From NCBI GenBank assembly GCA_050951405.1, contig JBMNIZ010000008.1, forward strand, positions 5,986 through 69,985: 64,000 nt of DNA. Reading direction: 5' to 3'. Source of the DNA: Bacillota bacterium (lineage in GTDB: Bacteria > Bacillota > DULZ01). Every line of letters starts with the position of its first letter. Position 1 is the stretch's first letter. A model generated the notes under the pieces. It searched no databases. It worked only from the letters and a program-made list of their open reading frames with translations, and was not told the DNA's origin. Positions 225 through 53,007 of this stretch are shown here, one piece after another. The position numbers and the translations under genes are program-made.

Positions 225-2999
225 TTAATTTTTTTCCAGGGCCTCTTTGATCCTGGCCGGTGTGGCCGGCAGGGTATAGATGCGCACGCCCACCGCATCG
301 TAGATGGCGTTTAGAATCGCCGGCGTGATAGGCACAGTGGCCACCTCAGATATCCCCTTGGCTCCGTAAGGCCCGGTTGGTTCAGGGTCCTCCACGATCA
401 AGACCTGGTACTCGGGGGTCTCGTCTATTTTAGGCACCCCCAGCTGGCGAAAACTGCGGGCCTTGTGGATTCCCTTTTCCACCGGGTATTCCTCGGAAAG
501 AGCATAGCCCTGGCCCATGGAGCAGCTTCCCTGAATCTGTCCTTCGATTTTTTGGGGGTTGATAGACCTGCCCACATCATGGGCGGCGATTACCTTCAAG
601 AGTTTCACCTGGCCGCTGTCCGGGTCAACCTCAACGATGGCCACTTGGGTTGTATAAGCATAAGCCGGATAGTTCCGGTATTCCTCCTTGGGCACCTTGG
701 CTCTGGCCTCTTTATCCGCCAGGGCATAAGTCTTGGGAGCCACGTAGAAATAATCAGCCCGAATGCTGTCCCCTCGGGAAGATACCTGAGAGGCTAAATC
801 AGCCAAAGAACAAACCAGCTTCCCGTCTTTCCCCCTCACTGCCCCTTCCTGCAGTTCCAGCTGGGCTGGATCAAGCCTGTAAATTTCTCCCGCATAATTC
901 AACAGTTTTTCTTTGAAAATGCGGGCTGCATGATACATGGCATTGCCGCTGATGAGGGTCTGCCTTTCTCCTACGGCACCGCCGTGCCTGGGGGTCAAAG
1001 AAGTATCTCCGGTGATAATCTCTAAAGACTGGGCCGGCAGATTGAGGGTCTCGGCGGCAATTTGAGCCATTGTGGTCCTGATCCCCTGCCCCATATCCAC
1101 TGCCGACACTCTCACCTGTATGCCGCCATCAGGTTTCAGCTCCACTATGGCCCCGGCATCATCCACCTTGCCCTTGCCCGCTCCCACATTTTTAAAGCCG
1201 CTGGCTACCCCTATGCCCAACTTTTTCCTGCTCCCCCGGTACATTTCCTGAAAGCGGGGCAAATCCTTCTCCAGGGCTGCCTTAGCCTGCTTGATGGTTT
1301 CCTTAATGGCCACACTGGCCTTGAGGATCTCACCGGAAGCGGTTTCCGAACCCACATCCAGAGCATTCTTCAGGCGGATGTGGAAACGGTCCATCCCCAA
1401 TTTCAGGGCAATTTCATCCAAAAGGCTCTCGATGGCTACCGCCGCCTGATTAATGCCAAAACCCCGGAATGCACCCGAATTGGCGTTGTTGGTAAAAACC
1501 GCCCAGCCCTCTACCCTGATATTGGGTACCACATAAGGTCCGCAGGCAAAGATACAGGCCTGATCGATGACCCTGGGGCTCAGTCCCGAATAGGGTCCCG
1601 CATCGGACAACAATTTGGCGTCCACAAAAAGCAGCTTGCCTTCTTGATCCGCTCCCACCTGGTAGTCCATGATATAAGGATGGCGCTTGGCACTCATGCG
1701 CATGGACTCTTCCCTGCTCAGGGTGAGCTTCACCGGTTTGCCGGTACAGTATGCTGCCAAAGCCGTCATGTATTCTACCGGGCCGTCGATCTTCCCGCCA
1801 AAAGCGCCCCCCAAAGGCGTAACGATGATTCTGATCCGATCTTCCGGCAAATTCAAAACCGCTTGCAGCCTTTTCTTAATCTCGAAAGGGAACTGGGTGG
1901 GCCCGTATACTGTCAGCACGCCCTTTTCATCCAGAAAACTAACGCTGGATTCAGGCTCCAGGTAAGCATGCTCCACAAAGGGTGTTTCAAAATGACCTTC
2001 CACCACAATGTGTGCCCGGGCCTTGGCCTGCTCAACATCGCCCACCTGATGGACCAAATGCTTGCAAATGTTGCCTTCCGGGTACAATTTGGCGCTGGTC
2101 TCCTGCAAGGCTTCTTGGGGAGTAAAAACTCCAGGGAGAACCTGGTAGCGAACCTTGATCAAATCCACTGCCGCCTGGGCAATCTCCTCTGTTTCTGCCA
2201 CCACCAAAGCTACAGCGTCCCCCAAAAACCTGACTTTCTCCCCGCAGAGAACGGGCTGGTCCGGTTTAATAGTACCAATGCCGTTTTCCCCCGGGATATC
2301 CTTGGCGGTCAACACCGCCGTAACGCCCGGCAGGGCCTGGGCCTCGGTGATGTCTATATCCAATATTTGCGCATGAGGATGTTCCGCCCAGAGCACTTTG
2401 ACGTGTTGGAGGCCTTCCATGTCCAGATCGTCAGCATATTGCAGTTTTCCCGTTACCTTGGCTTCCCCGTCAATATCCGGCAGGGAAGCCCCCAAGCCGC
2501 CTCCTTTTTCCTCCGGATACTGCTTGCCCTCTGCCAGCCGGCCCGCCAGCTGAACCGCTTCGATTATTTTGGTGTAACCGGTGCAGCGGCAGATGTTGTT
2601 CTTTAAGCCCTGCATGATTTGCTCCTGGCTGGGCCTGGGATGTCTGTCCAGTAAAGCCTTTGCCGCCATAATCATCCCCGGGGTGCAAAAACCGCACTGT
2701 ACAGCGCCGGCAGCTAAAAAGGCCTCTTGAATAGGATGGAACTTGCCGTCTGCCGCCAGGCTCTCGATGGTGAGCACGCTTTTACCCTCCATCTGCTTCA
2801 ACGGCAGGAGACAGGACCGTTTGGCCTCCCCGTCCACAATCACCGTACAGGCCCCGCAATGACCGGTACTACAACCGTTTTTGGTCCCCGTAAGCTTCAA
2901 TTCTTCCCGCAGGAAGGAAAGCAGGCTTTGTTTGTCTTTCGCCTTCGCTTCCACAGGCTGCCCATTGACCGTAAACCTGATCACCCTCATGAACCTCAC
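225..2999 (-). CDS. Molybdopterin-dependent aldehyde oxidoreductase, Mop-type (two N-terminal 2Fe-2S domains fused to MoCo-binding domains, no FAD subunit)
   Basis: 924 aa; 2Fe-2S motifs GCSTGHCGACTV and QCGFCTPGMIMAAKAL, CRCTGY; C-terminus GVRIYTLPATP resembles D. gigas MOP GVRIYRLPAYP. Confidence 0.8.
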   Translation of the reverse strand: MRFMRVIRFTVNGQPVEAKAKDKQSLLSFLREELKLTGTKNGCSTGHCGACTVIVDGEAKRSCLLPLKQMEGKSVLTIESLAADGKFHPIQEAFLAAGAVQCGFCTPGMIMAAKALLDRHPRPSQEQIMQGLKNNICRCTGYTKIIEAVQLAGRLAEGKQYPEEKGGGLGASLPDIDGEAKVTGKLQYADDLDMEGLQHVKVLWAEHPHAQILDIDITEAQALPGVTAVLTAKDIPGENGIGTIKPDQPVLCGEKVRFLGDAVALVVAETEEIAQAAVDLIKVRYQVLPGVFTPQEALQETSAKLYPEGNICKHLVHQVGDVEQAKARAHIVVEGHFETPFVEHAYLEPESSVSFLDEKGVLTVYGPTQFPFEIKKRLQAVLNLPEDRIRIIVTPLGGAFGGKIDGPVEYMTALAAYCTGKPVKLTLSREESMRMSAKRHPYIMDYQVGADQEGKLLFVDAKLLSDAGPYSGLSPRVIDQACIFACGPYVVPNIRVEGWAVFTNNANSGAFRGFGINQAAVAIESLLDEIALKLGMDRFHIRLKNALDVGSETASGEILKASVAIKETIKQAKAALEKDLPRFQEMYRGSRKKLGIGVASGFKNVGAGKGKVDDAGAIVELKPDGGIQVRVSAVDMGQGIRTTMAQIAAETLNLPAQSLEIITGDTSLTPRHGGAVGERQTLISGNAMYHAARIFKEKLLNYAGEIYRLDPAQLELQEGAVRGKDGKLVCSLADLASQVSSRGDSIRADYFYVAPKTYALADKEARAKVPKEEYRNYPAYAYTTQVAIVEVDPDSGQVKLLKVIAAHDVGRSINPQKIEGQIQGSCSMGQGYALSEEYPVEKGIHKARSFRQLGVPKIDETPEYQVLIVEDPEPTGPYGAKGISEVATVPITPAILNAIYDAVGVRIYTLPATPARIKEALEKN

Positions 3000-3253: not shown

Positions 3254-4093
3254 TTAGTATTCATTGGGAAGCTCTTTCAGCTGGGCCAGGGTAAAAACCG
3301 GCCCATCAAGGCAGACATAGCGGCTCCCCAAGTTACAGCGGCCGCACTTGCCGATACCGCATTTCATCCGCATTTCCAGGGTAGTGACGATTTGTTCCGG
3401 TTGAAAACCCATCTTATCCAGGGATTGGAGCACAAATTTGATCATAATGGGAGGACCGCAGGTTAAAGCGATGGTATTGACCGGGCTGGGATTAAGTTTT
3501 TCCAAAAAAGCCGGCACAAAACCCACATGTCCCTGCCAGTTTTCGTCTCCTGCATCCACGGTCACACTCACCTGGGTATCCTTCACCTTAGGCCAGTTCT
3601 CAAAAAGGTCTTCTTTGAAGCAGAGATCCGCAGGAGAACGGGCCCCGTAAACAATATGCAGCTTGCCGAAATCCTCCCGGTGCTCCACACAATAGTTGAT
3701 CAGAGAACGTACCGGGGCCAATCCGATACCGCCGCCGATAAAGAGAACGTCTTTTCCTTGAAAAAGATCCAGGGGAAAACAATTACCGTAAGGCCCCCGG
3801 ATGCCCACTTCCTGGCCGACTACCGCTTCATGGAGGGCTTCCGTTAAAGTGCCGACCTTTTTGATGGCAAATTCCAGGTGATTTTCGCCCTGGGAAGTAA
3901 CGGAAAACATGGCTTCCCCTACCGGCAGCAAAGAGAGCATGCCCAGCTGTCCCGGCATGGGATGAAAGGGCTTACCCTCATCGGTAGTAATATGAAAGGT
4001 CTTTACATCGGGAGTTTCCTCCACAATTTTGACAATCTTTCCGATCTTCGGCAGTAAGGGATTAGCAGAAGCTTGACCATTTGCCTTAGTCAT
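3254..4093 (-). CDS. FAD/NAD(P)-binding ferredoxin-reductase-type oxidoreductase with C-terminal 2Fe-2S (AsrB / sulfhydrogenase gamma / FloxA-like)
   Basis: 279 aa; GGGIGLAP nucleotide-binding motif; C-terminal CGIGKCGRC cluster motif; overlaps next gene by 8 nt. Confidence 0.7.
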   Translation of the reverse strand: MTKANGQASANPLLPKIGKIVKIVEETPDVKTFHITTDEGKPFHPMPGQLGMLSLLPVGEAMFSVTSQGENHLEFAIKKVGTLTEALHEAVVGQEVGIRGPYGNCFPLDLFQGKDVLFIGGGIGLAPVRSLINYCVEHREDFGKLHIVYGARSPADLCFKEDLFENWPKVKDTQVSVTVDAGDENWQGHVGFVPAFLEKLNPSPVNTIALTCGPPIMIKFVLQSLDKMGFQPEQIVTTLEMRMKCGIGKCGRCNLGSRYVCLDGPVFTLAQLKELPNEY

Positions 4094-5096
4094 GGATGGG
4101 CACCTCCCTTAACTGATTGATCACCCTGGTGATATCAAGGGTAACCGGGCACTTCACCAGGCAACGCCCGCATCCTACACAACCCCACTTCTCATACCTT
4201 TCCGGCATATACTGAAGTTTATGCAGGAAACGCTGGCGGACCCTTTCTTTCTTAGTGGGTCTGGGATTGTGCCCCCCGGCCATTAAAGTATATTCCTTGT
4301 ACATACAGGAGTCATAGCAGCGATACTTTACTCCCTTTTCGCCCCTGTTCCTGTTTAGAATATCAAAACAGTGACAGGTGGGGCAAAGATAAGTGCAAGT
4401 GCCGCAGTTGATGCATTTACGGCAAATCTCCTCCCAAACGGGGTGCTCAAACATTTTCTGCAGCTTTTCCGTTAAACCTTCAACTTCCACCTGCAAGGAG
4501 CATTCTTTCCCTTCAGGGAATTCCTGGGAAGTATCTGCCAGAAGCGATTGAGTAGCCTGGAGCAGCTTTTCCCCTTTTTCGCTCTGGGCTGAGAGAAGAA
4601 AAGCGTCGCCAGTATCAGCCATCATGATATCGGCCTGGGGCGCCCGGCCGGGATCGATTCCCCAAGAACTGCAGAAACAGCTGGGCTCCGGCTGCAGGCA
4701 GCCTAGAGATACCAAAACCGTTTCTTCCCGCTTTTTCTTGTAATAGATATCTTCAAAACCTTTGGCGAGAAAAACGTCATCCAACAATTCTATGGCTTTT
4801 ACGTCACAGGGTCTGATGCCCACAACCACCGTTGGGCCGCCGACACCATCCAGCTCCTGGACAGCAGCCTGAAGCTTCTTGGTTTCATATGCATAAAGCT
4901 CCTCTGTTTGAGGGAAAAATATTTTTTTAGGAGAAATAATAGTATTTTTATCCAGCGCCGGTTCCGTTCCTTCTTCCCAGACGGCAAACTGGGTCAGCCC
5001 ATCATTGTCAACAGGAACATAAACTGTTGCCTGCTTCTTCAGCTCCGCCAAAAATCTCGGCAAATCCTTCTTTTGCAGTTTTTTCATTGATTTCAC
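4086..5096 (-). CDS. Iron-sulfur protein with two 4Fe-4S ferredoxin motifs (AsrA / sulfhydrogenase beta / FloxB-like)
   Basis: 336 aa; CINCGTCTYLCPTCHC and CVGCGRCLVKCP motifs. Confidence 0.65.
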   Translation of the reverse strand: MKSMKKLQKKDLPRFLAELKKQATVYVPVDNDGLTQFAVWEEGTEPALDKNTIISPKKIFFPQTEELYAYETKKLQAAVQELDGVGGPTVVVGIRPCDVKAIELLDDVFLAKGFEDIYYKKKREETVLVSLGCLQPEPSCFCSSWGIDPGRAPQADIMMADTGDAFLLSAQSEKGEKLLQATQSLLADTSQEFPEGKECSLQVEVEGLTEKLQKMFEHPVWEEICRKCINCGTCTYLCPTCHCFDILNRNRGEKGVKYRCYDSCMYKEYTLMAGGHNPRPTKKERVRQRFLHKLQYMPERYEKWGCVGCGRCLVKCPVTLDITRVINQLREVPIHD

Positions 5097-5109: not shown

Positions 5110-5997
5110 TTACATGAATTCTTCCGGATCTTCGGTTTTATACAGGCCCAGAGGAGGAGTTACCTCCAAATCGAGACCGGCTTCGTACTCGCCAAACAAC
5201 TCGTTGATATCCTTGGCAATCTTGCGGTTTAACAACATGATGGGAATACCGGCTGGACAGACCCTTTCGCACTCGCCGCACTCAGTACATCTTCCCGCCA
5301 CATGAAAGGCCCGGACCAGTCCATAAAACTCATTGCCCCCTCGGTCAACGCTTCTTTCCAGCCAATCCTGACCCTGATCGAAGATACACTCCCGGCAGTT
5401 ACAGGCGGGGCACACATTGCGGCAGGCATAACAGCGAAGACAGCGATCATAATGAGAGGACCAAAACTCATAGCGGCTGTCAGGATCCATTTTTTCGATT
5501 TCCTCTACCCCGGCAAATCGATCCTTTTGTGGGGATGGCTGCACTTCCTCTCCCAACAGCACGTCGTAAATCACCGGATTGGGATGGGTGCAGTAAAGGC
5601 ACTTTTCCTCCAGAGGCAGGTCCTGAATTTTCTCCGGTCCGGCTTCTTTCGCCGCCTGAATACTCTTCATGCCCGGACAGGGAATACCGATCAAATAGAT
5701 TTTATCTCTATCCAGTTGTAAATCCTGCAGCAAACGGTTAACGCCCCGGGCATCACAACCCTTGACAAAAATAGCCGTTTTGCCTTCCTTCTGCCTATAC
5801 TCCATGAGATATTTGGCCAGATTAACCGCACAAAACTCATCCCAGATCAGACAGTCCGTATCTTCCGGTCGGGTAATGAAAACCGGCGTGGAATCATAGA
5901 AAAAAGTGCCCTTTTCCCAACCGATAATCAGATCCACTTCTTTCTTTTTAAGCAACTCTTTGGCCAGCTGCCGCATTTTTTCCGTCACTGACTTCAT
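5110..5997 (-). CDS. FrhB/FdhB-family (coenzyme F420 hydrogenase beta-like) iron-sulfur flavoprotein, FloxC-like
   Basis: 295 aa; CLRCYACRNVCPACNC and CTECGECERVCP motifs; ATGA overlap with mvhD stop. Confidence 0.6.
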   Translation of the reverse strand: MKSVTEKMRQLAKELLKKKEVDLIIGWEKGTFFYDSTPVFITRPEDTDCLIWDEFCAVNLAKYLMEYRQKEGKTAIFVKGCDARGVNRLLQDLQLDRDKIYLIGIPCPGMKSIQAAKEAGPEKIQDLPLEEKCLYCTHPNPVIYDVLLGEEVQPSPQKDRFAGVEEIEKMDPDSRYEFWSSHYDRCLRCYACRNVCPACNCRECIFDQGQDWLERSVDRGGNEFYGLVRAFHVAGRCTECGECERVCPAGIPIMLLNRKIAKDINELFGEYEAGLDLEVTPPLGLYKTEDPEEFM

Positions 5998-6431
5998 TTG
6001 GCATCCCTCAACTTCCTATTGGGTCCCAGAGGCCGGATGCGCTCCGACAAATCCGCGATTACCTGAGCGAATTTCGGTCCCTCTGATCCTGAAACCCAAC
6101 GCACTTCAAATCTTTCAGGATCCAGACCCGTGTACTCCAGCATCCGTTGCATAATCAGATAACGGCGCCGGGTGAAATAATTGCCACTACCATAGTGGCA
6201 GTCACCGGGGTGTCAGCCGGCCACTAAAACTGCATCGGCCCCCCGTTTAAAGGCCCGGAGAACAAATTGGGGATTAACCCGGCCCGAACAGGGGACGCGG
6301 ATGACGCGAACATGAGGAGGATATTGGAGACGATTCAGCCCAGCCAGGTCAGCACCCGCATAAGCGCACCAGTGACAGCAAAAGGCTATTATTTTCGGCT
6401 CCCAATTGGCTCCGTGATTTTCTAGAGACAT
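5994..6431 (-). CDS. mvhD: MvhD-like hydrogenase/heterodisulfide-reductase iron-sulfur subunit, predicted selenoprotein (in-frame TGA at 6213..6215)
   Basis: ORF track stops at TGA after ...AVLVAG. Reading through gives [20 protein letters not shown]..., matching the MvhD GCHPGDCHY motif with Sec in place of the first Cys. The frame then stays open to a TGA at 5994 (ATGA overlap with next gene). Likely start is [22 protein letters not shown] at 6431. Confidence 0.7.
6183..6215 (-). other. UGA-Sec recoding site with candidate SECIS hairpin 13 nt downstream (mRNA GCCACUA-UGG-UAGUGGC)
   Basis: Perfect 7-bp stem and 3-nt loop at the spacing typical of bacterial SECIS elements; palindrome gccactaccatagtggc on + strand 6183..6199. 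Confidence 0.55.
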
Positions 6432-8416
6432 AAAGCTTCCACCTCCGCTAAGATTTGCTGATCGGTAAAGCCTTTGACAGTGATCGCCCCGGACCGGCAG
6501 GCCACATTGCAGGCACCACAACCCTGGCAAAGACCCTTATTGACCGCAGCCACCATTCTTTCCTGCATCTTGCCTGCTACCCTTTCCTGCAAGGGAACCA
6601 GCTCAATGGCTTTGTAAGGGCAGACTCCCACGCAAATGCCGCAGCCGGCACAGATGGCGTTATCAACAGTGGCCACCATGGGGTCGGTGGGCATTTCCGT
6701 TTTGGAAAAGAGGCTGGTCACTTTTACAGCAGCAGCGCTGGCCTGGCTGACCGTATCGGGAATATCCTTCGGCCCCTGACAGGCCCCGGCCAAGAAGACC
6801 CCCGCCGTAAAGGTTTCCACCGGCCTGAGCTTGGGATGGGCTTCCTGGAACCAGCCGTCTTTATCCGTGGAGATGCTGGCCAGCTTGGCCACCTTCTCGA
6901 AACCGGCGGCCGGCACCATGGCAGTAGCCAAAACCACCAGGTCCGCCTCCACTTCCACCGGGCGGCCCAGCAGTGTATCTTCACCTTTGACCACCAGTTT
7001 GCCCTCCCGGGGATAGATTTTGGAAACCCTGACCCCGTAAATACACAGCCCCTTCCTCCACCGTCCTTTCATAGAACTCGTCATAGGCCTTGCCCGGAGT
7101 CCGGACATCCATGTAGAAGACGAAGGCCTGACCGTCGGGAATCTTCTCCAGGACCTGATGGGCGTGTTTCGCCGTATACATGCAGCAGGCCCGGGAACAG
7201 TAGCTCTTCCCTTTGGTCAGATCTCTGGAACCGGCACACTTAATGAAAGACCACTGTTTTCGGTTCCTGCCCGTCGGAAGGACGAATAATCTTCCCTCCC
7301 GTCGGGCCGGACGCACTGGCCATTCTTTCAAACTGCATCCCGCTGATCACATCGGGATACCTGCCGTAACCATATTCACCGTACGCCTCTTCCCAGGCGA
7401 AGAGATCATAACCGGTGGCGACGATGATGGCGCCGAACTTCTCATCAATGATCTCGTCCTGCTGCTCGTAATCAACGGCCCCGGCCGGGCAGAATCTTCT
7501 GGCAGATACCACAACGCCCTCTGGTAAAGAGGCGGCAGTGTTCCTTGTCAATTACCGGCACATTGGGCACGGCCTGGGGAAATGGGAGTGTAAATGGCTT
7601 TCCGCTGGCCCAAACCGCATAGTCAAATTCGCTGGGTACTTTCGCTTGGGCATTTCTCCTGGCAAAGACCGCATCCGGTGCACCTGCTTTCGTCTACCAG
7701 ACGGGCTTTCTTCCTGAATCTTGACTTGGTAAGATTGCCCACATAGCCCCCGATTTCTTCCACTTCGGAGTAGGTTAAAGTTCTAATGTTAGGGTGCTGC
7801 GCCGCAGCAACCATTTTCGGCGTGCTAATTCAGGCGGAGCAGTCCAGGGTCGGGAAGGTCTTATCCAGCCTGACCATATTCCCGCCGATGGTGGGCTCCC
7901 TTTCCACCAGAACCACCTGGTAACCGGCATCAGCCACATCGATGGCCGCCTGCATCCCGGCAATACCGGCGCCGATCACCAAGCGCCCGCCTTTCCACCG
8001 GAATGGTGGTCAGCTCCAGGGGCTCATTTTTCGCCACCTTGGCCACAGCACTGCGCACCAGGTCGATGGCCTTGGCCGTGGCTTTTTCCTTATCTTTGTG
8101 TACCCAGGCACATTGCTCCCGGATATTGGCCATTTCCATGAGGAACTGGTTAATGCCGCCACTTTCACAAGCCTTCCGAAAAGTAGTCTCATGCAAGTCT
8201 CGGGGTGCAGGATGCCACCACCACCCGGTCCAGGTCATGCTCGGCGATGGCCTGTCTTGATCAAGTCCTGGCCCGGTTCCGAACACATATATTGATAATC
8301 GGTGGCAAAGGCCACATCAGGACATTTCCGCCGCTGTCAGCCGCTACTTTTTTCACATCCACCGTGGAGGCAATGTTGGTTCCACAATGACAAACAAAAA
8401 CTCCTACCCGTTTCAC
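6422..8416 (-). pseudogene. hdrA: hdrA (heterodisulfide reductase subunit A). It carries an in-frame TGA at the conserved Cys of the FPTxDCSxC motif (probable Sec) and at least six apparent frameshifts
   Basis: GTG start with AGGAGGG RBS. N-terminus VKRVGVFVCHCGTNIA. Fragments in three frames: [84 protein letters not shown]. Also [28 protein letters not shown]...YCSRACCMY and a C-terminal double ferredoxin. Overall span ~665 codons as expected for HdrA. Confidence 0.75.
7792..7832 (-). other. UGA-Sec codon of hdrA (7830..7832) plus a downstream hairpin with a bulged U (mRNA GGUUGCUGC-GGC-GCAGCACC)
   Basis: TGA aligns with the second Cys of the DCSMCI motif of HdrA. The hairpin lies 17 nt downstream, with an 8-bp stem, a bulged U and a G-rich apical loop, as in bacterial SECIS. 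Confidence 0.5.
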
Positions 8417-8443
8417 GCTTCTTCCCTCCTCGTTGCCGGATGT

Positions 8444-9315
8444 CTAAGCAAGTCCTTTTTCTCTAAAAGAGGCAGCCCGTTCACAAAATGTTTGGGCAGA
8501 CCCTAATTCTTTCGGGCCGTAGCCAAAAGCCAGCCCCATCAATTCCGTAAAGTAGAAGATGGGCAGATCGTACTTCTCCCTGGTAAGCTGCCCTCAGTCC
8601 CTTTCTGCCTCATGTCCAGGTTCATGAAGCACAAGGGGCAGGCCACCGCAATACAATCGGCTCCATTAGCCTTGGCATCAGCAAAAATGTTGCGCAGAAG
8701 AGGTCCCGCCTCCCTGGACAGAGTAGTGGTATGCCCGGCGCCACAACACTCTACCTTGAAGGACCAGTCCACGGGCGCGGCACCCAGCATCTCCATTAGT
8801 CGATCCATGCTCTGCGGGTTTTCCGCATCATCGAAACCCGTAGTTTCCACGGGACGGACCAGCAAACAACCATAATAGCAGGCAACTTTCAAACCTGTTA
8901 AAGGCCTGACCACTTTTTCCTGGATCTGTTCCTGATCCACCCGATTAGCCAGCAAATCCAGCAAGGATAAAGTCTGGTTGGATGCCTCATAATCCATTTC
9001 AATAATGCCCGCCACTTCTTCCTGGCACTCCTTGGAATTTCGTACCGCCAATTCCACTACCCGCATCCTGTTGTAACAGGCTGCACAGGGCACGGCCACA
9101 TCCAGACCTTCTTTTTCCGCCAGGGCCAGGTTTCGAGCCGGCAAAGCAAACCCCAATAACCGGTTGGTGGCATGGGCGGCAGAGGCCCCACAGCAATTCC
9201 AATCGGGTATTTCCCACAACTCCAATCCCAGGTGTTTCGCTACCAGTTTGGTGGAAAGATTGTACTCAACACCTGTAGCCTCAAGAGAACAACCGGGGTA
9301 ATAAGCATATTTCAA
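8444..9315 (-). CDS. hdrB: hdrB (heterodisulfide reductase subunit B, two CCG domains), one apparent frameshift near 8600
   Basis: NCCGASAAH and ECCGAGHTT CCG-domain motifs. The C-terminus continues in another frame as EKYDLPIFYFTELMGLAFGYGPKELG...REKGLA, ending at TAG 8444. Confidence 0.8.
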
Positions 9316-9884
9316 CGCTTTTCACCTCCCGCAGCGCGAACCCTTTCAAAAATACGTTTAACCGCCTTCTGTCCCCCGCTTCTCTTCGGCAGAGGATGAA
9401 CTTTGCCGTTCAGCAAAAGAGGCGGCCCCAAGAGCACATCTTTAAATAATTGCCCTGACTTTAAATTAAAAAAAGCAATCAGCAAAGCTTCCTGTACCCG
9501 CCCGAAATTTTCCACCAGACTTAAAAAGGTGTCGCTGAAGATATCTACGGTTTTTACAGGTACTTTGCCTCGCCTTTTCGCTTCCATCCGCAGGGTCTCC
9601 ATCAGCTTAGGAATATCAATTCCTTTTGGGCAGCGAGCATAACAAGTGGCACAGTGGGCACAAACCCAAATGGATTTCGCTCCCAGTGCCTTTTCTCCCA
9701 GCCCCAACTGCAGCATCCGAATCACCTGATGTGGCGTGTAGTCCATGGCTGCAGACAGAGGGCATCCGGCAGAACACTTGCCGCACTGATAGCAATCCTG
9801 GACATTGACCCCACTGTCTAAACGGACCAGCTCCTTGAAACTCCGGCCCGCAGTTAAAGTGGAAGCAAGTTCCAAGTTTTCCAT
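9312..9884 (-). CDS. hdrC: hdrC (heterodisulfide reductase subunit C, two 4Fe-4S motifs)
   Basis: 190 aa; CYQCGKCSAGCP and CAHCATCYARCP. Confidence 0.85.
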   Translation of the reverse strand: MENLELASTLTAGRSFKELVRLDSGVNVQDCYQCGKCSAGCPLSAAMDYTPHQVIRMLQLGLGEKALGAKSIWVCAHCATCYARCPKGIDIPKLMETLRMEAKRRGKVPVKTVDIFSDTFLSLVENFGRVQEALLIAFFNLKSGQLFKDVLLGPPLLLNGKVHPLPKRSGGQKAVKRIFERVRAAGGEKR

Positions 9885-10111
9885 ACAATCCCCCTCTTTA
9901 CAGCAAAATAAAAGCCATTTGTAAGAAAAAGCGCAAGCTCCTTAAAAAAAATGAAAAAGCCGCCCGGCAATTTTATATATTCGTTAACCTAAGCGAAATT
10001 CCTGCCCCGTCGCATCAAATTTCGCAAAAATACCGCATCTGGATACATCTTCCTTGCTTTCCTTACTTTCAGACAGATCGGGTATATCCGACTAACTCGA
10101 ATGAAGTATAT

Positions 10112-11182
10112 ATGAAAAGACAGATGCCTTTGTCTACAGGAACAAATTGCGGAAGGGGAACCATCGATGCTCTTTCCTTTCTTATCCGGTACCGGCGGAC
10201 TGATCCTTTTCTTTTGCCGGCATGCGCTGGATCAAAAAAGGACTGGACCAGGGCCGGCCGGAGGGGACTGGAAACCGCCATCAGCCTCTACTCACCGCCA
10301 CTCCCCTAGTGGCCACCCTGACCGGTACCGTCATCACCATGCTCTTCCAGAGCAGCAGCGCCGTCACCGTCCTCACCGTGGGTCTGGTCAACTCCGGCCT
10401 CATGACTTTTGTCCAGGGGCTGGGCATCGTCCTGGGCACCAACATCGGCACGACCTTTACCGTCCAGCTGCTGGCTTTTGAGTTCGACTCTCCTGGCACC
10501 CTGGCTGCTGGTGGGCGGGCTTCTGTTACGCAGCATGGTTTACACCGGAATGACCTCTGGCAGGGCAGTAGGGAGAAACCCTCTCCGGCCTGGGACTGGT
10601 CTTTTGCGGCCTCCACCTGTTTCGTCTCTCTTTTGCACCCTCTGCAAAGCCAGCCCTCTTTTCCTGGGCTGGCTCTCTTCTCTGGGAGACAACTACTCTA
10701 TGGCCCTGGTGACCGGCCTAATGGCCACTGCCCTGCTCCAGTCCAGCACCGCCGTCACCGCCGTCACCATCGTCCTGGGCAGCCAGGGGCACCTGACCAC
10801 TGGAGACCGCTATCGCCCTCATGCTGGGATCAAATATCGGCACCTGCTCCACGGCCCTTCTTGCTTCTTTTAACGCAGCTGCCTGGAGGCCCGCCGCATC
10901 GCCATGGCCCACGTAGTCCTCAACGTCCTGGGAGCCATCATCTTCTTTCCCCTGATCGATTTCTTTGCGGACTGCCTGCGATACCTTTCCCCTCTCCTGC
11001 CCCGCCAAATCGCCCACGGCCATACCCTGTTCAACCTGTCATTTCCTCTCTCCTGGTCCTACCCTTTCTTACCCTGCTTTCGCCCGCCTCATCATCTTTT
11101 TGGTACCGGACAAAAAATAATGGCTGCCGGAATGGCCAGCCCCGTCGTGAGTTATTTTCATAGTAGACCCCCATGCCGCTAG
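10112..11182 (+). pseudogene. Na+/phosphate cotransporter (NptA / Na_Pi_cotrans family), split across three frames
   Basis: Fragments MLFQSSSAVTVLTVGLVNSGLMTFVQGLGIVLGTNIGTTFTVQLLAFE, LLQSSTAVTAVTIVLGSQG and HVVLNVLGAIIFFPLIDFFADCL lie in different frames. The 313-aa ORF has a Pro/Arg-rich out-of-frame tail. Confidence 0.55.
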
Positions 11183-11446
11183 CGCGGCACCAGCAGAGCA
11201 TGAAAAACATCCAGGGAGGGGTGGTTATTCCGGCGCAGAGCGACCTTGAGCCGAGCGGCTAACCAAGGTTAGCGAGGCCGAGGGCGGAGGCGGGCCCGAG
11301 GACAGGACGTCCGAGGCCGACCATTGAGGCAAGGATGCCGAATTGGTCGGGAAGCCCGCCGGAGCCAGAGGAAGAGCGCTACCTTGGTCCGCGAGGATCA
11401 CCGGGAGCGGCTGCCGGAATGACCAGCCCCGTCACGAGTTATTTTC
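11117..11446. repeat. Two ~40-bp direct repeats (11117-11158 and 11407-11446, 37/40 identical: GGCTGCCGGAATGRCCAGCCCCGTCRTGAGTTATTTTCA) bracketing a ~250-bp GC-rich segment
   Basis: Direct repeat read from the sequence; the intervening DNA is >65% GC with repeated CCGAGG/GAGGC motifs and small hairpins (GCTAACC-aagg-TTAGC). Confidence 0.6.
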
Positions 11447-11502
11447 AAAGCAGTAACATTTCCTGCAGTCCCATTACGCACAATTTAACCAAAACAGCCA
11501 CT

Positions 11503-12216
11503 TTAAAAAACCACCCGCTGATTGTGCGTATATACATTTAACCGGCCTCCCCGAACGGAACCAACCAGGGTCACTCCCAATTCTTCACCAAGCTGGACAG
11601 ACAAATCGCTGGGGGCGGAGCGGGAAGCCAGGACCGGCACTCCCAACTTGGCCGCCTTGACCATGATTTCCGAAGTACAGCCTGCCGGTGGTTAAGAGCA
11701 GCTTATCCGCCAGAGATATGCCGTCCAGAAAACACCGGCCCAGGATCTTATCGGCAGCATTGTGCCTGCCCACATCTTCCCGGAGAAACAAGATTCTTCT
11801 CGCTGGTGCCAAGAGCGGCGCTGTGGGAGCCCCGGGTCCGCCGGTAAAGTTCACCCATTCTCTGCATTTCTTTCATCAAAGCCAAGATTTCTTTCCCTTT
11901 AACCAGAAGAGAAGAAGTTACGGGCCGGCAGTGGGAAGAATCCGCATAATGTAAAAAGAAGTCCCTTTGCCGCAGCCGGTGGTAATATATCTTTTCAGAA
12001 AGGTCCGCCGAGCCAACAGGGAAGTATGATCCGACTGCACCCAGGCCAATCCCTTCTCCCTGTCCAGCTGCACTCGCCGCAAATGGCCCGATCAGCCAAA
12101 AAACCCTCCGCCACCAAAAAACCTACTGCCAGCTCTTCCTGATCCTGGGGAGTGCATAGAAGAGTGACAATTTCTTCTTCGTTAAAATAAATGGTCAGAG
12201 GTCTTTCGGCGATCAC
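11503..12216 (-). pseudogene. fdhD: fdhD (formate dehydrogenase accessory sulfurtransferase), frameshifted into at least three frames
   Basis: Fragments LTIYFNEEEIVTLLCTPQDQEELAVGFLVAEG, EDVGRHNAADKILG and SEIMVKAAKLGVPVLASRSAP...LGVTLVGSVRGGRLNVYTHN. No formate dehydrogenase catalytic gene nearby. Confidence 0.65.
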
Positions 12217-12394
12217 CTCTCCTGCCAGGGTTTCTTTTTTCTGTGGTTTTTTATTCCCATGGTATCGTAGATAACCTTTTCTGTAAGGCTGGACATCTGT
12301 TCCACCTCAAATAAAAATCCTTTATGGCTTTTCTTTCTATTCTAACTTAAAACAAAACAAAAAGACAAATTCATTCCAGTTTATTTAACGAAAA

Positions 12395-12604
12395 ATGCGC
12401 ACAATAAAAAAGCGGCAGCTTGCTAAGGAGGTTCAATCTTTGGCCAAATTAATGTCCGAAGAACTGCGCTGGGAGTTAGCCAAGGAATTAGGCGTGGACC
12501 ACATCGTGGCCACAGAGGGCTGGGGAGGAGTTCCTTCCCGGGAATGTGGAAATCTGGTGCGCAAAGCTATTGAACTAGCGGAGCGAAGCCTGGTGCAACG
12601 ATAG
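12395..12604 (+). CDS. Small acid-soluble spore protein, alpha/beta-type-like (divergent); start may be the TTG at 12431 behind an AAGGAGG RBS
   Basis: 69 aa; EELRWELAKELGV...PSRECGNLVRKAIELAE resembles the SASP core (EIAxEFGV...TSRANGSVGGEITKRLV); followed by a strong terminator. Confidence 0.45.
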   Translation: MRTIKKRQLAKEVQSLAKLMSEELRWELAKELGVDHIVATEGWGGVPSRECGNLVRKAIELAERSLVQR

Positions 12605-12606
12605 CT

Positions 12607-12640
12607 GCCGAAAAAAGGCCGCTTTCCGGCGGCCTTTTCC
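12607..12640. terminator. Bidirectional rho-independent terminator (AAAAAAGGCCGC-tttccg-GCGGCCTTTTCC) shared by the SASP gene (+) and the MCP / fla-che operon end (-)
   Basis: GC-rich 8-bp stem flanked by A-run and T-run. Confidence 0.7.
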
Positions 12641-12679
12641 CATTATTTTCCTTCTGGCGATAGTCTAAAAAAATCTTCT

Positions 12680-14005
12680 TTAATTTTCTGTCTGCATATG
12701 TTTGACCATATCCATTAAATCCTTGGAAAGATTGGACAGCCTGTTGACATATTCCGGTGCTCCAGATAGTTGGCGGCTATTTCCTCCACGGAAGCTGCCA
12801 GCTCCTGGGTGCTTCCTCCGGTTTGGGCGGCAATGTTTTCGATCTGCGCCATATGCTGAGCCACCTGGCGCCGCCGGCCGCCATTTGCTGGGTAGCATAA
12901 GAGACTTGTTGAATTTCCCGGCCACATCCTCAACGGATTTGATTATAGTTTCAAAAGCTCGCCCCGCCTCGGTCACCACTTGGATACCGCCGGCCGCTTC
13001 CTGGGTCCCCTGTTCCATGGATTCCACCGCTTTTTTCGTATCCTGTTGGATCTGCTGGATCATTTCCGCAATCTGCCCAGCCGCCGCTCCGGCCTGCTCA
13101 GCCAATTTTCTCACCTCTTCCGCCACCACGGCAAATCCCCGTCCTTGCTCTCCCGCCCTGGCGGCTTCAATGGCTGCATTCAAAGCCAGCAGATTGGTCT
13201 GCTCAGCAATGCTGGTGATGGTCTCCACGATTTGTCCAATTTCTATGGATCTTTCACCCAAAAGCCCCACCGTTTGAGAAGAACTGTGGACTGCCTTGCT
13301 GATCACCTTCATCTGCTCAATGGACTTGCTGATGGTCACCCCTCCCTGGGAAGCGATCTCCGCCGTCTCCCGCGAAAGATCGGATACGGCACGGGCGTTG
13401 GCCGCTATCTGCTGGATATCTTCAGACATGCGGCTGATAGTGGCAGAAATATCCTCGATACTGCCGGTCTGGTTTTCCATGCCCAGGGCTACCTGCTGAA
13501 TGGTCTGAGCGATTTGCTCAGTAGACTGGGATGATTGCTCCACATCAGCCTGCAAATTTCCGGCCATTTCCGCCACTTCCGCAGCCACCTCTCTGATTTT
13601 CAAAACAAAAGTCCTGAAGTTCTCCACCATCAAGTTAAAACCCCTGGCCAGGTCCAGCAGCTCATCATTGCTTTTACAGGCAGTTTGTACGGTCAAATCC
13701 CCTTTTTCCGCCCTTTTCATGGCCTTAACCACCTGTCCCACCGGGCCGAGAATGACTACGGACATAATGTAACCTACAAAAATAGAAAAAAGAGTGCCTC
13801 CCGTGCCGGCCACCAGAATATTTCTTTGAAAAATCCTGAAAGCCTGGTCAGCATTGCCGTGCCGGGCTGCCTCTTGCAAAAGAACGGCCACCGTGGGAAA
13901 AGTATAGCCGACGGTAGCTATCCAGATGACAACGGTCACTACTGAAAAGATGAGCACCATTTTCACTTTCAGGCTCAAGCGCATCTTTCCACCTCTTTTG
14001 TTCAT
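12680..14005 (-). CDS. Methyl-accepting chemotaxis protein; C-terminal signalling domain disrupted by apparent frameshifts
   Basis: N-terminal TM helices; highly conserved MCP core [35 protein letters not shown]. The C-terminal continuation ([29 protein letters not shown]) lies in another frame (12715..12933). Confidence 0.8.
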
Positions 14006-48709: not shown

Positions 48710-50230
48710 TTACCGGAAATGGAGGAGGCGGTCCCGGTACTCACTTTTCATCTCCCGCTGCATGTAGTTGATAAAGCGCTGGAGAAAAACGGCGGCCTCG
48801 GCCCGGGACATGGTTTCTCCCGGAAGAACCCGGCCGAAAGCGTCACCGCTGACCAGCCCCATTTCCGCAGCCACATAAATGGCGTCCCTGGCCCAGTAAG
48901 GGATCTCCTGATCATCCCGGAAAGGGGTGGGGCTGGGGTTAAAGGGAGCCAAGCCTTCAAAACCCAGGGCCCGGATCAGGGCGGTGATGGCCTGGGCCCT
49001 GGTCAAGACTCCACCGGGATCAAAACTGCCCGGCCTGGTCCCTTTGATCACACCCGCCTGGCTGACCGCCTTTATTTCCTGATAATAGGGATGATCCACC
49101 CTCACATCCACAAAAAGCGAAATCTCCTTCTCTTCCTCCCGGTTGAATCGGTCAAAGGGATTGAGCGCAGTTTGCCGGCTCTCTTTGGCTGTCTCCATGC
49201 CCGTCAGGCGGGCCAAAGCCCGGGCAAATTCGCCTCGAGTCATGGGCAAGCGGGGTCCAAAGTACTCCCCCCGGGCCGGAAAGGCTTCCAAACTGGCCAG
49301 CTCCAAGATGGGCCCTTCCGCCCAGTGCCCGGAAATATCCCTGAAGAGAGGTACCGGCAGCCTCCTCTGGCTGGGCAGGGTGGTCAAGCGGGTGCTCCCG
49401 CTGACCTGTTTCCTGCTCCGGCCCTTCTCTAGGAAACCTTCTGCATCAAAGCGGGGCAAATTGGCCTCATAGCGCAGAATGCCCTCTTCCTGGATGCTTT
49501 CCAAGTAGCCCCCGGCAAAACTGATGGGAGTGGGTTCATTGGGCTGGTACGATAGCTCCCGGGAACGGTTAACGGAAATGTGGAGCTGGAAAGTACCCGA
49601 CCACTCCTGGGGATATCTTTCCTTATCTTTGATCAGATCCCCGGTAAAGCGGATAATCCCATCCACCCTCTGGGTTTCGGTGCTCCCCCAGGCATGGTCA
49701 TAGCCCACCGTATCCCCCCAGGTCTCCACCACAACAGTGGCCTGATCCTTGCCCAAAACATAAGTCTTCCGCCCGGACCAGTTCCCGCTGAAATAGGCCA
49801 CCGCCGGCTGGTGATCAACCAGAGTGGATTTGGAAAACTGGTAATCCTTCAGGGTGTAGCGATCCTTCCCTACGGTCACGGTTTCGCTGATCCGGTCCAC
49901 CGAAGTCACATAGACAGTCTGCTTGTCCTCCATTTTCTTCTCTTCACTGCTGCTGAAGGAAACAGTACGATTTAATTTAATGGAACCGGTACTGTCGCTG
50001 AGCTTGTAACTCAAGTTGGTCTGATAGCCCCCTCCCCGGCCGGCCCGCTGGCTTTTCTGCACGGTACCGGTCAGGATCACCGGCTCTCCGGTGAGAAAAG
50101 TCAGCTCTCGGTATTCCCTTTCGTTGGAGATGCCTTCTTCCAGATGGAGCAGGTATTCTGTTCCCAAGGCAGGCCCGGCCCCAAGCCAGAACAGGAGCAA
50201 ACTGCAGAAAAAAATTACCGCTTTTCTCAT
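48710..50230 (-). CDS. Secreted cell-wall protein with three C-terminal S-layer-homology (SLH) domains
   Basis: 506 aa; signal peptide MRKAVIFFCSLLLFWLGAGPALG; SLH repeats FRDISGHWAEGPI..., FVDVRVDHPYYQEIKAVSQAGVIKG..., FRDDQEIPYWARDAIYVAAEMGLVSG... Confidence 0.75.
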   Translation of the reverse strand: MRKAVIFFCSLLLFWLGAGPALGTEYLLHLEEGISNEREYRELTFLTGEPVILTGTVQKSQRAGRGGGYQTNLSYKLSDSTGSIKLNRTVSFSSSEEKKMEDKQTVYVTSVDRISETVTVGKDRYTLKDYQFSKSTLVDHQPAVAYFSGNWSGRKTYVLGKDQATVVVETWGDTVGYDHAWGSTETQRVDGIIRFTGDLIKDKERYPQEWSGTFQLHISVNRSRELSYQPNEPTPISFAGGYLESIQEEGILRYEANLPRFDAEGFLEKGRSRKQVSGSTRLTTLPSQRRLPVPLFRDISGHWAEGPILELASLEAFPARGEYFGPRLPMTRGEFARALARLTGMETAKESRQTALNPFDRFNREEEKEISLFVDVRVDHPYYQEIKAVSQAGVIKGTRPGSFDPGGVLTRAQAITALIRALGFEGLAPFNPSPTPFRDDQEIPYWARDAIYVAAEMGLVSGDAFGRVLPGETMSRAEAAVFLQRFINYMQREMKSEYRDRLLHFR

Positions 50231-50281
50231 GGCGAAACCTCCAGAGAATTCATTCCCACCCCGAAATCCCGATCAAAACCA

Positions 50282-52795
50282 TTAATAAGCTATCTTGAAC
50301 ACCAAATAAGCTGTCGTCAGGTCGTGAACAAAGTAAACTGTATCCCCCGGCTGCAGCTCTTCCGCCCGGATGAAAGAATGATCGTCAAAGACCAGGGCTT
50401 TCTCCAAATCCAAGACCAAATCGTCCGGGTTGGGAGTCCAGCGTTGATAGCCCTCGCTCCAGTCTTGAATTCGCTCCAGCCTGACCGTAGCGGTAACAGG
50501 GTCCGCTTCTTTCACCCGGCCGATGCTGGTCTTCATTACCGCCGCAAGGTTCCGGTGGAGGGACAAGGCCAGGATGTTCCCTTCCTCATCGGTGATCGCC
50601 AGCACATACCGCCTTTTATATTCCTCGCTCCAGCGGCTTTCAGCCAGATCCTCAGGGGAGATGAAACGGGCTGTTCGCACCGCATCCAGAATAAGGCCGG
50701 CCCTGGTCAGGACAAGCTGCTGGGTCCGGCGGCTTCGCGCCACCCGTTCCCATTGATTGTTTTGCAGATAATCGGCAGAGCTGATTTCCAGGGATGATTT
50801 TTCCACCCGATCCAGGCGGCCCCGGTAGACTTGCCAAGCCTTGGGAAGAAAATTCCGGGAAAGCATGATGAGAACGGATTCCCCGCCGGAAATCCTCTCC
50901 CCTTCCAGAAAAAGGTGTTCTCCTTGGTTGAAGTCAGCCGGATCCACCAGCTTACCGTCTTTGACAGCGATAGTCCCGGCTCTGAAGGAAAATATTTCTT
51001 CCCGATCGGACAGGGTTAACTGCTGCAAGGGCCAGGAAATCCGGTCAATAAAACCGTTGTAGCTTTCAGCCGGCCCCTCCCCCACTTTGAGCTTCAGCCC
51101 CTGGGGACTGCCGTAAACGGAAGAGAGGGCCAGATAGACTTCCGCACCTAACCGGCTTTTCCGCAATTCCTCCAGGGTCAGCTCTTTTTCTCCCAGGTAT
51201 AATTCCGCTCCCGGCGCCAATTCGATCAATTCCAAGTCCCGGCGGGGATACCAAAGACCGTAAAAATATTCCTCGGGGCCGCTCAGGCTGAGCCTTGATC
51301 CTTCCGGATAAACCCCTTCCAGGCGGCCCCTGACCAGTAAGTCCACCGCCCCTAGGGAAGGAGATACTATAATTCTCGCCAGCTCTCCCCTATCCAGGTC
51401 CGCTATCTCCAATTTCACCCGGTCCCCGACGTTCAGATCATCCAATCCCCGGATCCGACCCTCTCTTACCACTTGGGTGCCGGCCGTCAGCCGGTAGACT
51501 TTTTCCTGGCCGTTTTCCAAAAGATATAAGCGGTCCCCGTCCAGGGACTTGACCCGGCCGGTCTTCACCCCGGAACGGGCTGCGGCATAACCGGGCAAGA
51601 GGGAACCCAGGGTCCCTTCCACCGCCACTACCGCATTATCCTGGACCTTGACCCGGATTTCCTGCCCCACAAGCAGATCTTCCAGCCCTGCCGGGCGCCC
51701 GTCGATGGTCACGGAAAGGCGGGCATTAAGGGGAAGGATTCTCTCCCGCCCGGAGGAGATTTCCTTAAAAAAGAGAGTTTTTTGATCGGCACTGATGCCG
51801 GACAGCAGTCCCTCCAGCCAACCGCTTGCGGCCGGGAAAACAGCGGCAAAAGCAACCGAACCGGTTGGATCGAGGAAAAGCTCCAGCCGGTCGCCGGTTT
51901 TCAAAGCAGAAGCCCGGCTCAAACCTCCGTTTTTCAGGACCGGAAAACCGGCTCCCTCCGGAAAGAGAACCCGGATATATTCCAGTCCGTCTAATTCCAC
52001 TTCCAACTCCGTCCAACTGCCGGCCTGCCAAAAACTGCGCTGTCCCAGCACTCGGCCGGAAAGAAAATCCCAGCCCCGCCTGGGCCCGGCCAGAGGAGAA
52101 ATTCGATCTAAAATAGCCGACATTTCTCCCCGGGTCAGATGGCCCCGCGGGTGAAAAGTACCGTCCCGGTAACCGCTCATGATCTTTTGCTGGAGGAGGG
52201 GCTCAATGGCCGTTATATAGCTGGGCTTAAAATCCTGCCAGTCGGAAAAAGAATAGACGGACCGGATCCGGTCTCCATAAACCGGCGGGATCTCCAGGGC
52301 CCGAGCAAGCCAGAAGGCCGCCTCCTGGCGCTGGGCGGGCTTGGTCCTGTTCTGATCAAAAGCCCCCTGTTCTTCCGGTAAAATGATCCCCCGATTTTTG
52401 GCCACTTGAATGTAGCCCAAGGACCAAAGTCCGGCGGCGCTAGCGGGCGGCTGCGGCAACCCTGCTCCTATCAACTCGCCGGCTCTCTGGGCTTCCGCCT
52501 CCAGGCCGGCAATCCGCAGGACCAGGGCCAGGGCCTCTTCTTTGGTCAAAAGGCCGTTGGGCTGGAATTTACCGCCCCCCACACCCTGAATCACTCCCTG
52601 GGCGGCCATCCGATAAATGGGAGCAGCGGCCCAGTGGCCTTTGATGTCCTGGAAATCCATCTGGCGGTAAAGCTGGGCGGCATAGGGAGCCTCCCGGTAA
52701 ACGGGAATCTCCGCCCCCCAGGCGCCGGAAAAGACCGGCAAAAGCAGCAGGAAGATGTTGATGATGAAGACAGTGAAGATGGCTTTTCTTTTCAT
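50282..52795 (-). CDS. Cell-wall protein with three N-terminal SLH domains and a large C-terminal beta-rich domain
   Basis: Signal peptide MKRKAIFTVFIINIFLLLLPVFSGAWGAE; SLH repeats FQDIKGHWAAAPIYRMAAQGVIQG..., ...WSLGYIQVAKNRGII..., FSDWQDFKPSYITAIEPLLQQKIMSGYRDGTFHP... Confidence 0.75.
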   Translation of the reverse strand: MKRKAIFTVFIINIFLLLLPVFSGAWGAEIPVYREAPYAAQLYRQMDFQDIKGHWAAAPIYRMAAQGVIQGVGGGKFQPNGLLTKEEALALVLRIAGLEAEAQRAGELIGAGLPQPPASAAGLWSLGYIQVAKNRGIILPEEQGAFDQNRTKPAQRQEAAFWLARALEIPPVYGDRIRSVYSFSDWQDFKPSYITAIEPLLQQKIMSGYRDGTFHPRGHLTRGEMSAILDRISPLAGPRRGWDFLSGRVLGQRSFWQAGSWTELEVELDGLEYIRVLFPEGAGFPVLKNGGLSRASALKTGDRLELFLDPTGSVAFAAVFPAASGWLEGLLSGISADQKTLFFKEISSGRERILPLNARLSVTIDGRPAGLEDLLVGQEIRVKVQDNAVVAVEGTLGSLLPGYAAARSGVKTGRVKSLDGDRLYLLENGQEKVYRLTAGTQVVREGRIRGLDDLNVGDRVKLEIADLDRGELARIIVSPSLGAVDLLVRGRLEGVYPEGSRLSLSGPEEYFYGLWYPRRDLELIELAPGAELYLGEKELTLEELRKSRLGAEVYLALSSVYGSPQGLKLKVGEGPAESYNGFIDRISWPLQQLTLSDREEIFSFRAGTIAVKDGKLVDPADFNQGEHLFLEGERISGGESVLIMLSRNFLPKAWQVYRGRLDRVEKSSLEISSADYLQNNQWERVARSRRTQQLVLTRAGLILDAVRTARFISPEDLAESRWSEEYKRRYVLAITDEEGNILALSLHRNLAAVMKTSIGRVKEADPVTATVRLERIQDWSEGYQRWTPNPDDLVLDLEKALVFDDHSFIRAEELQPGDTVYFVHDLTTAYLVFKIAY

Positions 52796-53007
52796 GGGCC
52801 TTTTCGCCTCCAATTTGCGGTTACCAAAACCCTATCGGGGAGCGATGCGGTCATCGCCCCTTGCGGGCAAGGACGGAACCCTGCCCCTACAAATTTTTAC
52901 GTAATTTGCGGGATCCATGTAGGGGCCGGCGCCCACGCCGGCTCGCTTTAGGACCCGAAAGGATGCCCCCAAATTCCCACGACTGTATTCCCACATCCGA
53001 CGAACGT

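Follow-up and report, generated by a model that had tools for sequence, protein, structure and literature searches.

A UGA codon within the hdrA gene of an uncultured digester bacterium (Bacillota/Clostridia) appears to encode selenocysteine (Sec). The gene, for a heterodisulfide reductase subunit A-like flavoprotein, lies at 6422..8416 on the minus strand of a 64,000 nt stretch of contig JBMNIZ010000008.1 (GenBank assembly GCA_050951405.1; we refer to this whole stretch as the window), as part of an hdrCBA-mvhD(flxD)-flxCBA electron-transfer module, and its in-frame TGA occupies 7832..7830. On the sequence evidence, we hold with high confidence that this codon is read as Sec, and that the frame breaks that interrupt the window's copy of hdrA are most likely assembly errors. 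The assignment is carried by homology to HdrA, by conservation of the UGA, by translation of the codons downstream of it, and by selection on an RNA hairpin that follows it. In intact relatives, hdrA has ~660 codons; it is intact in four related contigs, which we designate L001 (from JGI), L002 and L003 (both from ENA) and L245 (from NCBI).

An earlier note on this DNA, made from the letters alone, had placed a probable Sec codon in hdrA at 7830..7832 on the minus strand; the coordinates are exact to the base and the translation is as it was given. The minus-strand context is GAC TGC TCC GCC TGA ATT AGC ACG CCG AAA ATG GTT GCT GCG GCG CAG CAC CCT, and the codon corresponds to residue 194 of the intact protein. 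When the reading frames of the window's hdrA are stitched together, the resulting 661 residues align over their full length with HdrA of Methanothermococcus thermolithotrophicus (5odc_A; residues 3-658, E = 6e-225), such that the TGA is aligned with C197 (DCSIC197ILAPKMV / DCSICILAPKMV), and the TGC at 7839..7841 (minus strand), the partner cysteine of a C-x-x-U pair (DCSAU), is aligned with C194. The homology thus covers both the thioredoxin-reductase-like FAD domain and the Fe-S domains of HdrA. The stitched protein has 8000 HdrA homologues at E < 1e-30, and full-length homologues with 65-71% identity have a Cys at the TGA site (LDCSACICTPKMVAAAQHP). As the earlier note had proposed, the residue swapped for TGA is the second Cys of the HdrA motif FPTxDCSxCIxxPKMV. 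NCBIfam HdrA models match with 620-840 bits, yet these scores are below equivalog cut-offs tuned to the methanogen enzymes, so no equivalog is named. In Methanococcus maripaludis HdrA, the equivalent residue has been shown experimentally to be Sec197, paired with a cysteine near the flavin adenine dinucleotide (FAD) cofactor (PMC13518236).

These comparisons bear on the possibility that the UGA is read as Trp, Gly or Cys, through general reassignment of the codon or near-cognate read-through. TGA terminates 13 of the 40 confident open reading frames (ORFs) of the window, indicating that there is no general reassignment. Moreover, homologues have a redox cysteine at the aligned position, making this a classic Sec/Cys pair; the codon is followed by a SECIS-type hairpin under selection (described below); and the same position is experimentally Sec in M. 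maripaludis. A reading as another amino acid is favoured by the failure to find Sec machinery within the window; nonetheless, we give such a reading almost no credence.

We looked for the same TGA in other organisms using the pattern TTYCCNACN4GAYTGYN6TGAN9CCNAARATG and one genome per species, and found at least 120 loci. Among the matches listed, which represent at least 120 species, every locus has the TGA in frame, and the 50 codons on each side of it are open in all loci but one (L109, which has an extra stop downstream). The loci listed span Desulfobacterota, Chloroflexota, Firmicutes, Asgard archaea and further groups; of the named genomes represented, the nearest, Pelotomaculum sp. UBA1371, has only ~70% DNA identity. 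The contigs L001, L002, L003 and L245, from four independent assemblies of this strain or of sister strains, have the TGA and the hairpin unchanged, and among them there are synonymous differences beside the TGA (TGC/TGT, TCC/TCT, CCG/CCC and ACG/ACT). The earlier note had reasoned that loss of the TGA from close relatives that retain the flanking codons would speak against Sec; the pattern is the reverse, with the TGA kept while flanking synonymous sites vary. In the codons after the TGA, L001 and L003 differ by 140 synonymous and 24 non-synonymous changes, which argues that this part of hdrA is translated in the same frame and is under purifying selection.

Gene callers nonetheless treat the codon as a stop. 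In three of the four related contigs (L001, L002 and L003), hdrA is called as two products, of 193 amino acids (aa), ending at the TGA, and of 460 aa; the database proteins nearest to the stitched one, with 98% and 95% identity, are two such 460-aa products, which start at a Met just past the TGA and whose contigs each have the 193-aa product as well. On the record of the fourth contig, L245 (GCA_012512425.1, JAAZEG010000039.1; 984..2963), hdrA is a single 659-residue product that runs through the TGA. Public annotation is therefore inconsistent, with JGI and ENA calls splitting hdrA on identical DNA that the L245 record reads through. The split calls suit an explanation in which the TGA is an ordinary stop, a nonsense mutation or a sequencing error, and the hairpin arises incidentally from the codons for Met-Val-Ala-Ala-Ala-Gln-His, a peptide that is also conserved in Cys homologues. 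Against this explanation, at least 120 species share an in-frame TGA at precisely this codon, as do the independent assemblies, and purifying selection downstream in the same frame is strong. Furthermore, the 460-aa product would begin at an internal Met within one folded domain of the solved structure. The hairpin itself provides a further test.

This hairpin is a putative bacterial selenocysteine insertion sequence (SECIS) at 7792..7812 on the minus strand, GGUUGCUGC-GGC-GCAGCACC(C), for which the fold, conservation in relatives, comparison of Sec and Cys forms, and covariation all provide evidence. The segment GGUUGCUGC-GGC-GCAGCACC runs from 7812 to 7793, reading G7812-G-U-U-G-C-U-G-C / G7803-G-C / G7800-C-A-G-C-A-C-C7793, with the apical loop GGC at 7803..7801. 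As folded by RNAfold, the hairpin has an energy of -11.0 kcal/mol and consists of a 6-bp upper stem, the GGC loop, and two G-C pairs past an unpaired U. The earlier note had described a hairpin beginning 17 nt downstream of the TGA, with a G-containing loop and a bulged U; the distance (7829..7813), the loop and the unpaired U are all as it described, and the lower pairs of the 6+2 bp stem allow two drawings, one with a bulged U and one with a U/C 1x1 internal loop. A published model of bacterial SECIS elements (bSECIS) specifies a loop of 3-9 nt, a stem of 4-16 bp, a G in the first two loop positions (G[G|U]), a spacing of 16-37 nt, and a minimum free energy (MFE) of no more than -7.5 kcal/mol (PMC13188914). 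The hdrA hairpin falls within this model in all respects, with its 3-nt loop beginning with G-G, 6+2 bp stem, energy of -11.0 kcal/mol, and UGA-to-loop spacing of 26 nt (7829..7804). It shares with the bSECIS consensus, for which the E. coli fdhF element is the archetype, a stem-loop directly after the UGA, a G-G that opens a small apical loop, and an unpaired U in the stem; it differs in that its loop is very tight (3 nt, GGC), its stem is short, and its sequence is lineage-specific. The likeness to bacterial SECIS elements that the earlier note had pointed out is sound, and the hairpin also shows selection on the RNA structure.

Evidence for that selection comes from homologues that encode the same peptide with either Sec or Cys. 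We scanned metagenomes for TGH (a Sec or Cys codon) followed by codons for I-x-x-P-K-M-V-A-(A/V)-A-Q-H, which gave 118 matches, 99 with TGA and 19 with TGC or TGT; the TGA matches comprise 61 unique sequences. Although the peptide is MVA(A/V)AQH in both groups, a six-pair core with G first in the loop is found in 57 of the 61 unique TGA forms and in none of the 19 Cys forms (Fisher p = 7.6e-15, a value that is overstated since the sequences are related). Sec forms have a mean MFE of -10.5 kcal/mol, and Cys forms one of -6.4 kcal/mol. In the 61 Sec sequences, four-fold degenerate Thr and Pro sites just upstream of the hairpin vary, with entropies of 1.95 and 1.39 bits, respectively, whereas the Ala four-fold sites within the stem are invariant. 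Cys forms of the same peptide thus use other codons and lack the hairpin, and Sec forms freeze synonymous sites, arguing against a hairpin that is a by-product of the amino acid sequence. Together with the conservation described above, this leads us to regard an ordinary stop, a nonsense mutation or a sequencing error as extremely unlikely.

Changes at paired positions are consistent with the same conclusion. We limited pair counts to 83 unique sequences in the window's hairpin register, because registers differ among clades. The GGC loop is invariant in these related sequences, a set that was chosen on that loop. At the pair that closes the loop, C-G, U-A and U·G all occur, but C/A never does. 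Both sides change at three hairpin pairs, 25/35, 26/34 and 28/32; with same-register Chloroflexota sequences included, 25/35 goes from C-G to A-U, and 26/34 from U-A to C-G. Hairpin cells are paired in 98% of cases, versus 14-61% after sliding the 3' strand by 1-3 nt. Judged by these comparisons, the putative SECIS is above chance through its conservation in relatives, and not through its energy.

Sec-HdrA loci of different bacterial phyla (L004..L123) have differing hairpins, in at least three registers, at an equal distance from the UGA. The hairpin in Syntrophomonadaceae and Desulfofundulus loci is the same as that in the window, and Thermacetogenium (L016) has the variant GUGCUGU-GGC-ACAGCAC. 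In the same place, Desulfobacterota have GGAUGYC-GGUC-GRCAUCC, and Chloroflexota have GGUUGACGC-GGC-GCGUCA or GGUGUCC-GUG-GGACGCC. We considered a single consensus structure for the 120 species listed, but rejected it because there are at least three hairpin registers among the clades. Nearly all of the nine archaeal loci (Asgard and Thermoproteota) lack a hairpin after the UGA, but a Bathyarchaeia locus (L060) folds strongly at this spot (-20.3 kcal/mol). Archaeal SECIS elements are located in the 3' untranslated region (UTR), and the scarcity of hairpins after the UGA in the archaeal loci is consistent with this.

Several observations weigh against reading the codon as Sec. First, the energy of the hairpin is no better than that of shuffled sequence: z = -0.02, with a shuffle mean of -10.95 kcal/mol, and 89 of 200 dinucleotide shuffles being as good or better, which also suits an ordinary stop with an incidental hairpin. 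Because chance alone is enough to make short GC-rich segments fold, we set single-sequence folding significance aside as a criterion. Second, Rfam, searched across the whole window at the gathering score and across 5900..8000 at E up to 10, gave no match to a SECIS family, although Rfam is not known to model such short coding-region hairpins. Third, the Sec and Cys groups compared above were drawn from different lineages, so the Fisher p-value overstates their independence. Fourth, we saw no selA, selB, selC or selD in the window, with none of 20 Pfam-scanned ORFs being of a sel type and most ORFs between 15 and 43 kb lying outside that scan; nor is there a tRNA anywhere in the 64,000 nt. The capacity of this genome to decode Sec is accordingly presumed. 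Lastly, the window's hdrA cannot, as deposited, be translated to a full protein, and the case for an artefact, to which we now turn, is built on sequence patterns and not on reads.

Six-frame reading indicates that the frame of the window's hdrA is broken ~12 times between 8340 and 7030, with ~15 extra single bases; the earlier note did not remark on these breaks. The TGA and hairpin are within a clean stretch of ~250 nt (~7985..7735) between two breaks, and are identical in both of the haplotypes described below, such that the Sec conclusion is unaffected. The breaks belong to a patchy zone at 6773..12913 in which there is haplotype switching together with extra or missing single bases, and within which ~8600..10090 is clean. 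Outside this zone, only one or two substitutions separate the window from L001 and L002, with no insertions or deletions (indels); inside it, there are ~5% substitutions relative to L001 and L002, plus many single-base indels. In a three-way alignment of hdrA, the window has 3 private substitutions, and matches L001 at 164 variable sites and L003 at 78, swapping between the alleles of the two every few single-nucleotide polymorphisms (SNPs). Each of the ~15 extra bases is on an L001/L003 SNP, with both alleles juxtaposed. For example, L001 CCC-TTT and L003 CCA-TTT become CCCATTT in the window, and L001 CTTT-ATT and L003 TTTC-ATT become CTTTCATT. This juxtaposition of alleles at SNPs suggests a consensus of a two-strain mixture rather than gene decay or recombination, and we conclude that the frame breaks are most likely a collapsed two-strain consensus error, and not biology.

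The breaks could instead be real, with hdrA and also hdrB being genuine pseudogenes, and the TGA and hairpin being relics of a former selenoprotein gene. Besides the ~12 frame changes in hdrA, hdrB is shortened to 258 aa by insertions at ~8504 to 8589, and the 258-aa HdrB stands in the NCBI record, being exactly MGI6552491.1 (from a 129,697-bp contig of a 'Bacillota bacterium' metagenome-assembled genome), where other members of its cluster have 299 aa. This identity indicates that the errors are present in the deposited record. On L250, another long contig, which comes from a related organism, hdrA is in pieces too. However, the ~15 lesions in the window's hdrA are all single-base insertions, with no deletions and no nonsense substitutions, and decay or natural recombination would not place every lesion on an L001/L003 SNP with both alleles retained. 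There are only 3 private substitutions, the haplotype switches dozens of times within 1.4 kb, and the gene is intact in four other assemblies, including the 10.7-kb L002, which is two substitutions from the window outside the zone. We therefore consider pseudogenes very unlikely. We are similarly doubtful of a real, recent and massive disruption of the Hdr module with a relic Sec codon and SECIS, or, as a milder proposal, of the invariant GGC triloop and unpaired U marking a Firmicute-specific SelB class. We also rejected homopolymer sequencing errors as the cause of the hdrA frameshifts, as the extra bases are mostly outside homopolymers.

The collapse of two strains appears to have affected the deposited annotation and neighbouring genes. 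There is a single protein accession between the FlxC-like MGI6552489 and the HdrB MGI6552491; judging from this numbering, the deposited record is probably without a usable HdrA protein. A Na/Pi cotransporter gene in the error zone is also broken, with ~28 extra bases in 10091..11120, and fdhD, within the same zone, is probably broken too. A different pattern occurs at 11950..12913, where seven single bases are missing, most of them at or beside homopolymer runs, and there are no substitutions; these deletions look like long-read errors. In L250 (JGI 3300053716, 129,376 bp; 6800..9400), hdrA is even more fragmented than in the window, and is called as pieces of 32 to 93 aa, with 270 private differences and 48 indel columns. 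L250 keeps FSA-TGA-ISTPKMVAAAQHP in hdrA and VLVAG-TGA-HPGDCHY in mvhD. We rejected L250 as a haplotype reference, since it is more divergent and error-laden. In this lineage, the hdrA locus seems to be error-prone in long contigs.

The adjacent gene, mvhD/flxD (FlpD family; 5994..6431, minus strand), overlaps the end of hdrA and has 145 codons with an in-frame UGA; it matches Pfam FlpD with E = 5.9e-55. The candidate Sec codon is at 6213..6215 (minus strand; VLVAG-U-HPGDCHY), where the 72-aa products of relatives stop, gene callers having cut mvhD to this length in five contigs (L001, L002, L003, L245 and L246). A hairpin, UGCCACUA-UGG-UAGUGGCA, lies 12 nt past this UGA (6182..6200, minus strand) and is a probable SECIS; the 66-nt hairpin region folds at -19.3 kcal/mol (z = -1.9). 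The earlier note had described Sec proteins encoded by two adjacent genes, and the conserved in-frame TGA in mvhD agrees with that description. From its sequence, the mvhD candidate is consistent with the known FrhD/MvhD selenoprotein family.

The genes of the module are co-linear on the minus strand (HdrC, HdrB, HdrA, MvhD-like, two Fe-S proteins and a FAD/NAD(P)-binding protein), in the same order as in L001 and L002. Upstream of hdrA, hdrB (8413..9315) encodes CCG domains according to Pfam, with 299 aa in relatives and 258 aa in the window, and hdrC (9312..9884) is intact, has two [4Fe-4S] ferredoxin-like motifs recognised by Pfam, and is identical to MGI6552492.1. Downstream of mvhD is a flxC/flxB/flxA-like group that consists of a 4Fe-4S protein (5110..5997; Pfam Fer4 families), a Fer4_22 protein (4086..5096; Pfam Fer4_22) and a FAD/NAD-binding protein (3254..4093; Pfam NAD_binding_1 and DHODB Fe-S). 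We call this an hdrCBA-flxDCBA type module, a name that we take to follow the Flx-Hdr system of Desulfovibrio. The flxABCD-hdrABC module of sulfate reducers such as Desulfovibrio vulgaris presumably has the same domain set in one operon (HdrC, HdrB, HdrA, MvhD-like, two Fe-S and FAD/NAD-binding proteins), whereas the order in the window is hdrCBA and then flxDCBA.

Directly downstream of the flx-like genes, at 225..2999 (minus strand), is a fused molybdopterin oxidoreductase of 924 aa (Pfam MoCoBD_1/2 and Fer2), which combines 2Fe-2S, aldehyde oxidase/xanthine dehydrogenase hammerhead, and molybdenum cofactor (MoCo)-binding domains. This protein may serve the Hdr/Flx module as its partner on the substrate side; its exact sequence was not in the protein collection searched. 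Beyond 13 kb, the window appears to have mostly flagellar, chemotaxis and cell-surface genes, as judged from Pfam matches and synteny with L001. Among them are two ORFs with IPT/TIG repeats, at 53008..55296 (minus strand; 762 aa) and 55145..58858 (minus strand; 1237 aa, with 13 TIG repeats), which overlap by ~150 nt in different frames and adjoin two SLH-domain (S-layer homology) proteins at 48710..52813. The two ORFs may represent a single surface protein of ~2000 aa that is split by a frameshift, or the upstream one may have been given a wrong TTG start.

Selenoproteins of the HdrA and FrhD/MvhD families were described in Syntrophomonas wolfei, Carboxydothermus hydrogenoformans, Desulfotomaculum reducens and Moorella thermoacetica (Zhang et al. 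2006, PMC1794560), are listed again in a 2026 review (PMC13188914), and are among the commonest prokaryotic selenoprotein families. Because both have been listed as selenoproteins of Clostridia since 2006, the Sec-HdrA locus in the window is an already known, ordinary member: its Sec residue and its operon partner are those of the family, and its SECIS agrees with the consensus. The Clostridia pairs (PMC1794560) are from the same phylum and have both selenoprotein families together; the host alone differs, being an uncultured digester bacterium with an HdrA whose nearest full-length Cys forms share 65-71% identity with it, and the mechanism is the same. The HdrA proteins of M. maripaludis (U197) and M. 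thermolithotrophicus (C197, 5odc) have full-length homology to the window's HdrA and share the motif FPTxDC-x-x-[C/U]-I-x-x-PKM; in M. maripaludis, Sec is at the equivalent residue and is paired with a cysteine three residues upstream (PMC13518236). Unlike the methanogen genes, the gene in the window is bacterial, with its putative SECIS in the coding region right after the UGA and not in the 3' UTR. Its partners are flx-like (NAD(P)H-linked) rather than a Vhu hydrogenase or Fwd, and its host is a non-methanogen, for which the disulfide substrate would not be CoM-S-S-CoB.

By analogy with the established bacterial pathway, we infer that SelB with Sec-tRNA(Sec) would bind the mRNA hairpin at 7812..7792 and deliver Sec-tRNA(Sec) to the UGA, resulting in read-through and a 660-residue HdrA. 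Sec would then take the place of the second cysteine of the C-x-x-C pair by the bifurcating FAD (C194/C197 in methanogen HdrA). The M. maripaludis structure suggests that Sec194 and Cys191 most likely form a reversible selenylsulfide, which would be the redox role of Sec in this HdrA. The adjacent mvhD would use the same recoding device.

The practical value of these observations is in annotation, given that the TGA leads to splitting of hdrA, and in assembly quality, given the two-haplotype consensus artefact. In addition, Sec and Cys forms of an identical peptide offer a clean, reusable test for RNA-level selection on a hairpin within a coding region. The biological weight of the finding is small: the window would add one more member to a family catalogued since 2006, with the expected hairpin and the expected Sec-MvhD partner.

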